From assembly GCF_048403405.1 (NCBI RefSeq), contig NZ_CP183129.1: a stretch of DNA of 64,000 bases, one strand, 5' to 3'. Both the position numbers and the translations under genes were made by a program. This DNA comes from Escherichia coli (GTDB lineage Bacteria > Pseudomonadota > Gammaproteobacteria > Enterobacterales > Enterobacteriaceae). The notes under the pieces were generated by a model, which worked only from the letters and a program-made list of their open reading frames with translations, made no database searches and was not told the DNA's origin. Below are positions 29,944-29,960 of this stretch, piece by piece. The number at the start of each line of letters is the position of its first letter. The first letter of the stretch is position 1.

Positions 29944-29960
29944 ATGGCGCGGAGTATTAG
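29944..29960. promoter_or_regulatory. maoS-like 17-bp site (Ori macrodomain organiser target)
   Basis: atggcgcggagtattag = reverse complement of CTAATACTCCGCGCCAT, which I recall as the maoS motif in the yifE-hdfR intergenic region. Confidence 0.5.

Follow-up and report, generated by a model that had tools for sequence, protein, structure and literature searches.

The maoP-hdfR locus and its surroundings

The window, that is, the whole 64-kb stretch of E. coli DNA analyzed here, carries wec/rff, rho, trxA, rhlB, gppA, rep, ilv, yifB, maoP and hdfR, followed by trpT-aspT-rrnC, rbs, kup, ravA-viaA, asnA-asnC, mioC, oriC, mnmG-rsmG, atp and glmUS. This is the usual origin-proximal gene order. 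The element under study lies in the spacer between hdfR and the divergent gene maoP, the name given to the former yifE (PMC5023128); its distance is 68 nt to the start codon of hdfR at one end and 34 nt to the ATG of maoP at the other (Table 1).

Table 1 Features of the maoP-hdfR locus, with the origin of replication as context (positions in the window)
Feature	Position	Strand	Basis
maoS, 17-bp cis-acting Ori-macrodomain site, CTAATACTCCGCGCCAT	29944..29960	-	exact match + published motif
maoP (yifE), trans-acting partner of maoS, 112-aa DUF413 protein	29571..29909	-	ORF, Pfam PF04219 E = 2.4e-38
hdfR, LysR-type regulator gene, 279 aa, divergent from maoP	30028..30867	+	Pfam HTH_1 + LysR_substrate
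maoP-hdfR divergent intergenic region, 118 bp, holds maoS	29910..30027	.	100% identical to K-12
Predicted sigma70 promoter of maoP	29953..29981	-	consensus scan + conservation
Candidate hdfR promoter	29967..29996	+	read from sequence
Second conserved block GATTTAAATgTTTTGTTTTAC	29977..29997	-	17-37 nt upstream of maoS
Putative base classes within maoS: predicted promoter AATACT; maoS-specific CT at start + CCGCGCCAT
oriC (context): AT-rich 13-mer repeats + DnaA boxes	52716..52961	-	sequence match

The origin was located with a 66-nt stretch of K-12 oriC comprising the 13-mers and a DnaA box, which matched exactly on the minus strand at 52896-52961. A further DnaA box, TTATCCACA, lies at 52716-52724, and in a near-identical annotated genome the oriC stretch sits between mioC and mnmG. 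The distance between the element and oriC, put at about 23 kb when the window was read from its letters alone, was computed as 22.8-23.0 kb. An Rfam-type search returned no known RNA family in the maoP-hdfR spacer. Since MaoP co-evolved with Dam, we also looked by eye for GATC in the spacer, where it does not occur.

Two insertions or gene differences in the wider neighborhood are recorded here as side observations. An IS200-type element of ~700 bp (window 30940-31638) lies between the hdfR stop (30867) and trpT. It includes a minus-strand tnpA ORF (Pfam Y1_Tnp; within 31037-31546), and positions 31505-31628 match the Rfam family STnc490. It is the sole copy in the window and is absent from this place in K-12 and in the closest complete genomes, in which IS200C occurs elsewhere (wecA-rho in ST2747, rbsD-kup in P31_YH1_02.21). 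The insertion sits ~70 bp past the hdfR stop and ~1 kb from maoS, leaving the maoP-hdfR spacer intact. Between rep and ppiC, an intact ORF at 17636-18127 on the plus strand corresponds to a gene that near-identical genomes annotate as a type II toxin of the PemK/MazF family, and no antitoxin gene is annotated beside it there. At this place K-12 presumably has only a pseudogene (yifN).

A single maoS site in the window, identical to that of K-12

On the plus strand, positions 29944-29960 read atggcgcggagtattag, the reverse complement of CTAATACTCCGCGCCAT. The sequence-only reading had taken the latter for maoS, and its letters agree one by one with the published site (Valens et al. 2016, PMC5023128); the published motif neither differs from the proposed one nor lies elsewhere. 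A pattern search of the 64-kb window with CTAATACTCCGCGCCAT returned one match with 0 mismatches, on the minus strand, and no second maoS-like match at ≤3 mismatches (shuffled controls at the same threshold gave a mean of 0.15 matches). In the literature, maoS is described as a single, unique site (PMC5441646).

Alignment to the K-12 reference (MG1655, NC_000913.3) showed the yifE-hdfR spacer to be 118 bp long in both strains and 100% identical. The adjacent yifE, taken in the initial reading to be intact and to encode the partner MaoP, specifies a protein identical to K-12 MaoP at 112/112 residues, with 2/339 nt differing in the gene. In hdfR, 19/840 nt differ, resulting in 2 amino-acid changes. 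The strain thus shares with the K-12 system (PMC5023128) the 17-mer, the 118-bp spacer, MaoP, the gene order yifB-maoP-hdfR-trpT-rrnC and the proximity to oriC, and differs from it by the two HdfR substitutions and the IS200-type insertion, the system itself being unchanged. The proposal that MaoP/maoS is conserved in this strain is sound at the level of sequence, with site, spacer and MaoP all matching K-12.

Such agreement is the rule within the species. An 801-bp query around maoS matched 5425/5426 complete E. coli genomes, several at 100%; yifB, maoP and hdfR are annotated (RefSeq) at the matching place in those genomes, and the 118-bp spacer is found in the same number at ≥99% identity. 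Hence, the feature was known before this analysis: the element has been published, it occupies its canonical place, and it is essentially universal in the species. Our finding confirms canonical MaoP/maoS in this strain, as expected given the near-universal spacer. As minor observations from the genome collection, the spacer occurs at 5431 places in the 5425 genomes, a few genomes having two copies; one copy is on a plasmid, and one complete E. coli genome is without the spacer.

Conservation across Enterobacterales

To map the motif beyond the species, we scanned one genome per species (100,044 species, a 298-Gb collection) for the exact 17-mer, obtaining at least 120 stretches with one match each. 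Among the matches listed, 119 of 120 are from Enterobacterales and fall in the same hdfR-maoP spacer, and no assembly among these at least 120 matches contributes more than one stretch. The matches listed span Enterobacteriaceae, Erwiniaceae, Pectobacteriaceae, Yersiniaceae, Hafniaceae, Morganellaceae and Budviciaceae, and include the insect endosymbionts Arsenophonus, a Sodalis-like symbiont and Candidatus Pantoea. The remaining exact match, in Rhizobium sp. SEMIA4064, has neither maoP nor hdfR nearby and is a chance match, as expected in a collection of this size.

Where the flank is present among the matches listed, a maoP homologue starts 33-43 nt downstream of maoS (115 loci), and on the opposite strand the start of an hdfR homologue lies 63-68 nt upstream (117 loci). 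This spacing is kept though HdfR is only 52-60% identical in Morganellaceae, and the bases next to maoS toward maoP differ from genus to genus. Because these loci had been selected by the motif itself, four further Enterobacterales loci were picked via the protein as a control for bias. Three of the four (from a bee-gut isolate, Leminorella and Serratia) contain the exact 17-mer. In the fourth, from the Pantoea sp. Nvir symbiont with its 1.39-Mb genome, only the last base differs (CTAATACTCCGCGCCAC). This symbiont is genome-reduced yet retains hdfR, maoP (at 1501) and maoS.

Outside the order the picture changes. An exhaustive search placed DUF413 proteins in ~513 clusters at 50% identity, with all Enterobacterales MaoP in one of them, and we viewed the genomic context of six distant MaoP homologues (43-58% identity). 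Three of the six lack both a neighboring LysR gene and a maoS-like upstream sequence; one of these three is related to an Endozoicomonas protein. In a fourth, the LysR gene immediately upstream shares the strand of the homologue instead of being divergent, and a maoS-like sequence is again absent; another, likewise lacking maoS, lies beside a divergent LysR gene whose product shares only 36% identity with HdfR.

The most informative relative is a locus on metagenome contigs (L125/L126; DUF413 gene at 283-633), where MaoP is 50% and the HdfR N-terminus 84% identical. Here the divergent arrangement is kept together with TTTTGTTTTAC, a 17-nt spacer and GATACT. At the position of maoS the locus reads GGGATACTCCCCGAAAA, matching at 10/17 positions, which may be a natural variant site or may mark a lineage without maoS function. 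Order-wide conservation, with all 17 bases unchanged in families as far apart as Morganellaceae and Budviciaceae, and the absence of maoS beside distant DUF413 genes define the phylogenetic range within which to seek the system.

A predicted maoP promoter overlaps maoS

The spacer presumably contains the yifE promoter, according to the authors of the primary study (PMC5023128). A consensus scan for sigma70-like elements (16-18 nt spacing; A as second and T as sixth base of the -10 hexamer) flagged a single promoter in the region, oriented toward maoP. Its predicted -35 element TTTACA (29981-29976) is separated by 17 nt from a -10 element AATACT (29958-29953), with 9/12 consensus matches. The latter corresponds to bases 3-8 of maoS. 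CCGCGCC would form a GC-rich discriminator, with the A at 29945, about position 3948050 of K-12 NC_000913.3, as the likely maoP start, so that maoS would reach from about -14 to +2 relative to that start. The -35 element is found at the fixed 17-nt spacing in 114/114 full-length loci (TTTACA in 101, TTGACG in 12 and TTTACT in 1), and the sequence between the two hexamers takes 30 different forms across the 114 loci. Fixed spacing combined with a variable spacer sequence is a pattern that fits a promoter.

On the opposite strand, a candidate hdfR promoter could be read from the sequence, with a -35 element TTGACA (29967-29972) and, 17-18 nt on, an AT-rich -10 region TTTAAA/TTAAAT (29990-29996). 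It went unflagged by the scan because its -10 lacks A at position 2. Conservation extends to both parts (TGACA in ~90/114 loci, TTAAATC in 113/114). The two promoters would thus interleave back-to-back, each -35 element falling within the spacer of the other.

Upstream of maoS, the block GATTTAAATgTTTTGTTTTAC contains the predicted maoP -35, the predicted hdfR -10 and the palindrome ATTTAAAT. Its sequence is near-invariant in the motif-selected loci and partly kept in L125; Leminorella and the Pantoea symbiont, which both keep maoS, show changes in it. These features make the block a candidate HdfR operator.

We searched published data for these promoters. Neither by gene name nor by coordinate do start sites of maoP or hdfR appear in the supplementary data of Kim 2012 (PMC3415461) or Ettwiller 2016 (PMC4782308). 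In the RpoD genomic-SELEX paper maoP and hdfR are unmentioned, the minor-sigma SELEX paper has only a weak peak inside hdfR, and a full-text literature search for yifE with transcription start site returned unrelated papers only.

The L125/L126 locus keeps the promoter elements without the other maoS bases, whereas the Enterobacterales families keep all 17, indicating that the invariance exceeds what a promoter needs. Promoter function alone does not appear to explain the invariance of maoS; the excess fits the separate cis function published for it (PMC5023128). Because maoS overlaps the predicted maoP core promoter, deleting or moving the site would also change the expression of maoP, and possibly of hdfR, and these effects need separating. 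Order-wide invariance and promoter overlap are modest additions to what is known of the element, which could guide mechanistic work.

Function of the site and alternative readings

Earlier genetic work traced Ori-macrodomain constraint to a cis determinant within the 118-bp hdfR-yifE spacer (Valens, Thiel, Boccard 2016, PMC5023128). In that study, the 17-mer alone, at an ectopic chromosomal position, constrained neighboring DNA. maoS worked only in cis, from the DNA molecule that it constrained, and acted on both sides over hundreds of kb; MaoP could be supplied in trans. When the spacer and yifE were plasmid-borne, constraint was restored only if the spacer was also on the chromosome, and markers excised away from maoS lost their constraint. 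Deletion of maoS or maoP released the markers, whereas deletion of hdfR made them more constrained (all PMC5023128). Separately, a yifE nonsense mutation was reported to raise hdfR and gltB transcripts (PMC8674398).

Taken together with the sequence comparisons above, positions 29944-29960 are almost certainly maoS, working with the MaoP encoded 34 nt downstream to give this region its Ori-macrodomain properties; we found nothing against the identification. The pair would keep marker mobility low in the origin-proximal chromosome, and its long-range contacts with the Right macrodomain few. Spread from maoS might occur by tracking or by loop extrusion starting there, as the authors suggest (PMC5023128). 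MaoP, by itself or together with a partner, is the most likely recognizer of maoS. As maoS coincides with the predicted maoP promoter, which is interleaved with the predicted hdfR promoter, such a recognizer would also be placed to autoregulate maoP and to influence hdfR. Promoter overlap fits the tightening of constraint upon hdfR deletion (PMC5023128) and the effect of the yifE nonsense mutation on hdfR and gltB (PMC8674398).

With respect to MaoP itself, the primary paper (PMC5023128) contains no ChIP, EMSA or purified protein, and direct MaoP-maoS binding is not reported in the literature found. Later MaoP literature found comprised only citations, transposon-screen phenotypes and reviews, with no mechanistic work. 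A structure model of the protein is helical, with no recognizable DNA-binding fold. With regard to a passage in PMC6389857, we note that MaoP is in fact YifE (DUF413).

The promoter overlap raises the question of whether the 17-mer might be conserved only as the maoP core promoter, perhaps under stringent-type control, the deletion phenotype then reflecting lost MaoP expression. The placement of the -10 element of the only predicted maoP promoter inside the motif, the -35 element at its fixed distance in every full-length locus and the presumption of a yifE promoter in the spacer (PMC5023128) all speak for this explanation. Still, we consider it very unlikely. The plasmid, ectopic and excision results are cis effects, which the supply of MaoP cannot explain: spacer and yifE on a plasmid do not suffice in the absence of the chromosomal spacer, an isolated ectopic 17-mer constrains a neighboring marker, and excised markers become free (PMC5023128). 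Moreover, with its -35, 17-nt spacing and GATACT preserved and 7 other maoS positions changed, L125/L126 suggests that a working promoter does not need the full 17-mer, and perfect order-wide invariance of a 7-nt discriminator would be unusual for a promoter alone. Attributing maoS to the LysR-type HdfR, as its operator rather than as a target of MaoP, is a highly improbable explanation. hdfR does adjoin the site in 117/117 loci with the flank present among the matches listed, and regulators of the LysR type often bind to the divergent promoter region of their own gene. Deletion of hdfR also alters marker mobility, but it tightens constraint where loss of maoS or maoP loosens it (PMC5023128). 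In addition, the dyad symmetry typical of LysR boxes is absent from maoS, the upstream block, which carries the ATTTAAAT palindrome, is the better operator candidate, and no HdfR binding data for the region were found.

The probability that the 17-mer is a chance occurrence unrelated to maoS is practically nil, and its context refutes this reading. Although the exact Rhizobium match shows that chance matches occur in a 298-Gb collection, the expectation for an exact 17-mer in the window is, by our own arithmetic, ~7e-6 (128 kb of two-stranded sequence), and the match, in E. coli, has the right spacer around it and the right genes on either side, all 118 bp being identical to K-12.

Returning to maoS as a site acting with MaoP, the predicted promoter overlap invites a more specific, and in our view unlikely, version: maoS could be the melted -14 to +2 segment of the promoter, with macrodomain activity launched from a MaoP-dependent complex on it. 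MaoP might, for example, recognize the site when bound by RNA polymerase or opened. If this were true, MaoP autoregulation and hdfR expression would be coupled to the loading of whatever it is that spreads through the Ori region, and the order-wide invariance of the full 17-mer, in contrast to an outgroup with promoter elements only, would reflect dual use.

Comparison with other chromosome-organizing systems

MaoP/maoS resembles MatP/matS of the Ter macrodomain in that a protein and a short DNA site define a macrodomain and restrict DNA mobility. MatP and MaoP both belong to a set of genes that co-evolved with Dam in enterobacteria. The two sites differ in number and form: matS occurs 23 times, spread across 800 kb, and MatP binds it directly, whereas maoS is single and non-palindromic and acts over hundreds of kb. 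No inverted repeat was found within 29900-30040, so maoS lacks the dyad symmetry of matS- and parS-type sites.

parS/ParB offers a further parallel, parS sites being, like maoS, short origin-proximal cis sites whose effect extends across a large domain around the origin. The parS sequence is palindromic, usually present in several copies and bound by a CTP-dependent clamp. To our knowledge, E. coli is without a chromosomal ParAB-parS system, and MaoP, a 112-aa helical DUF413 protein, has no similarity to ParB.

Within E. coli, migS, reportedly described by Yamaichi and Niki in 2004, is said to be a 25-bp cis-acting site affecting the bipolar positioning of oriC. We know of no dedicated partner gene adjacent to it. 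Like maoS, migS is a single short cis-acting sequence of the Ori region that affects origin positioning; the two differ in sequence and location.
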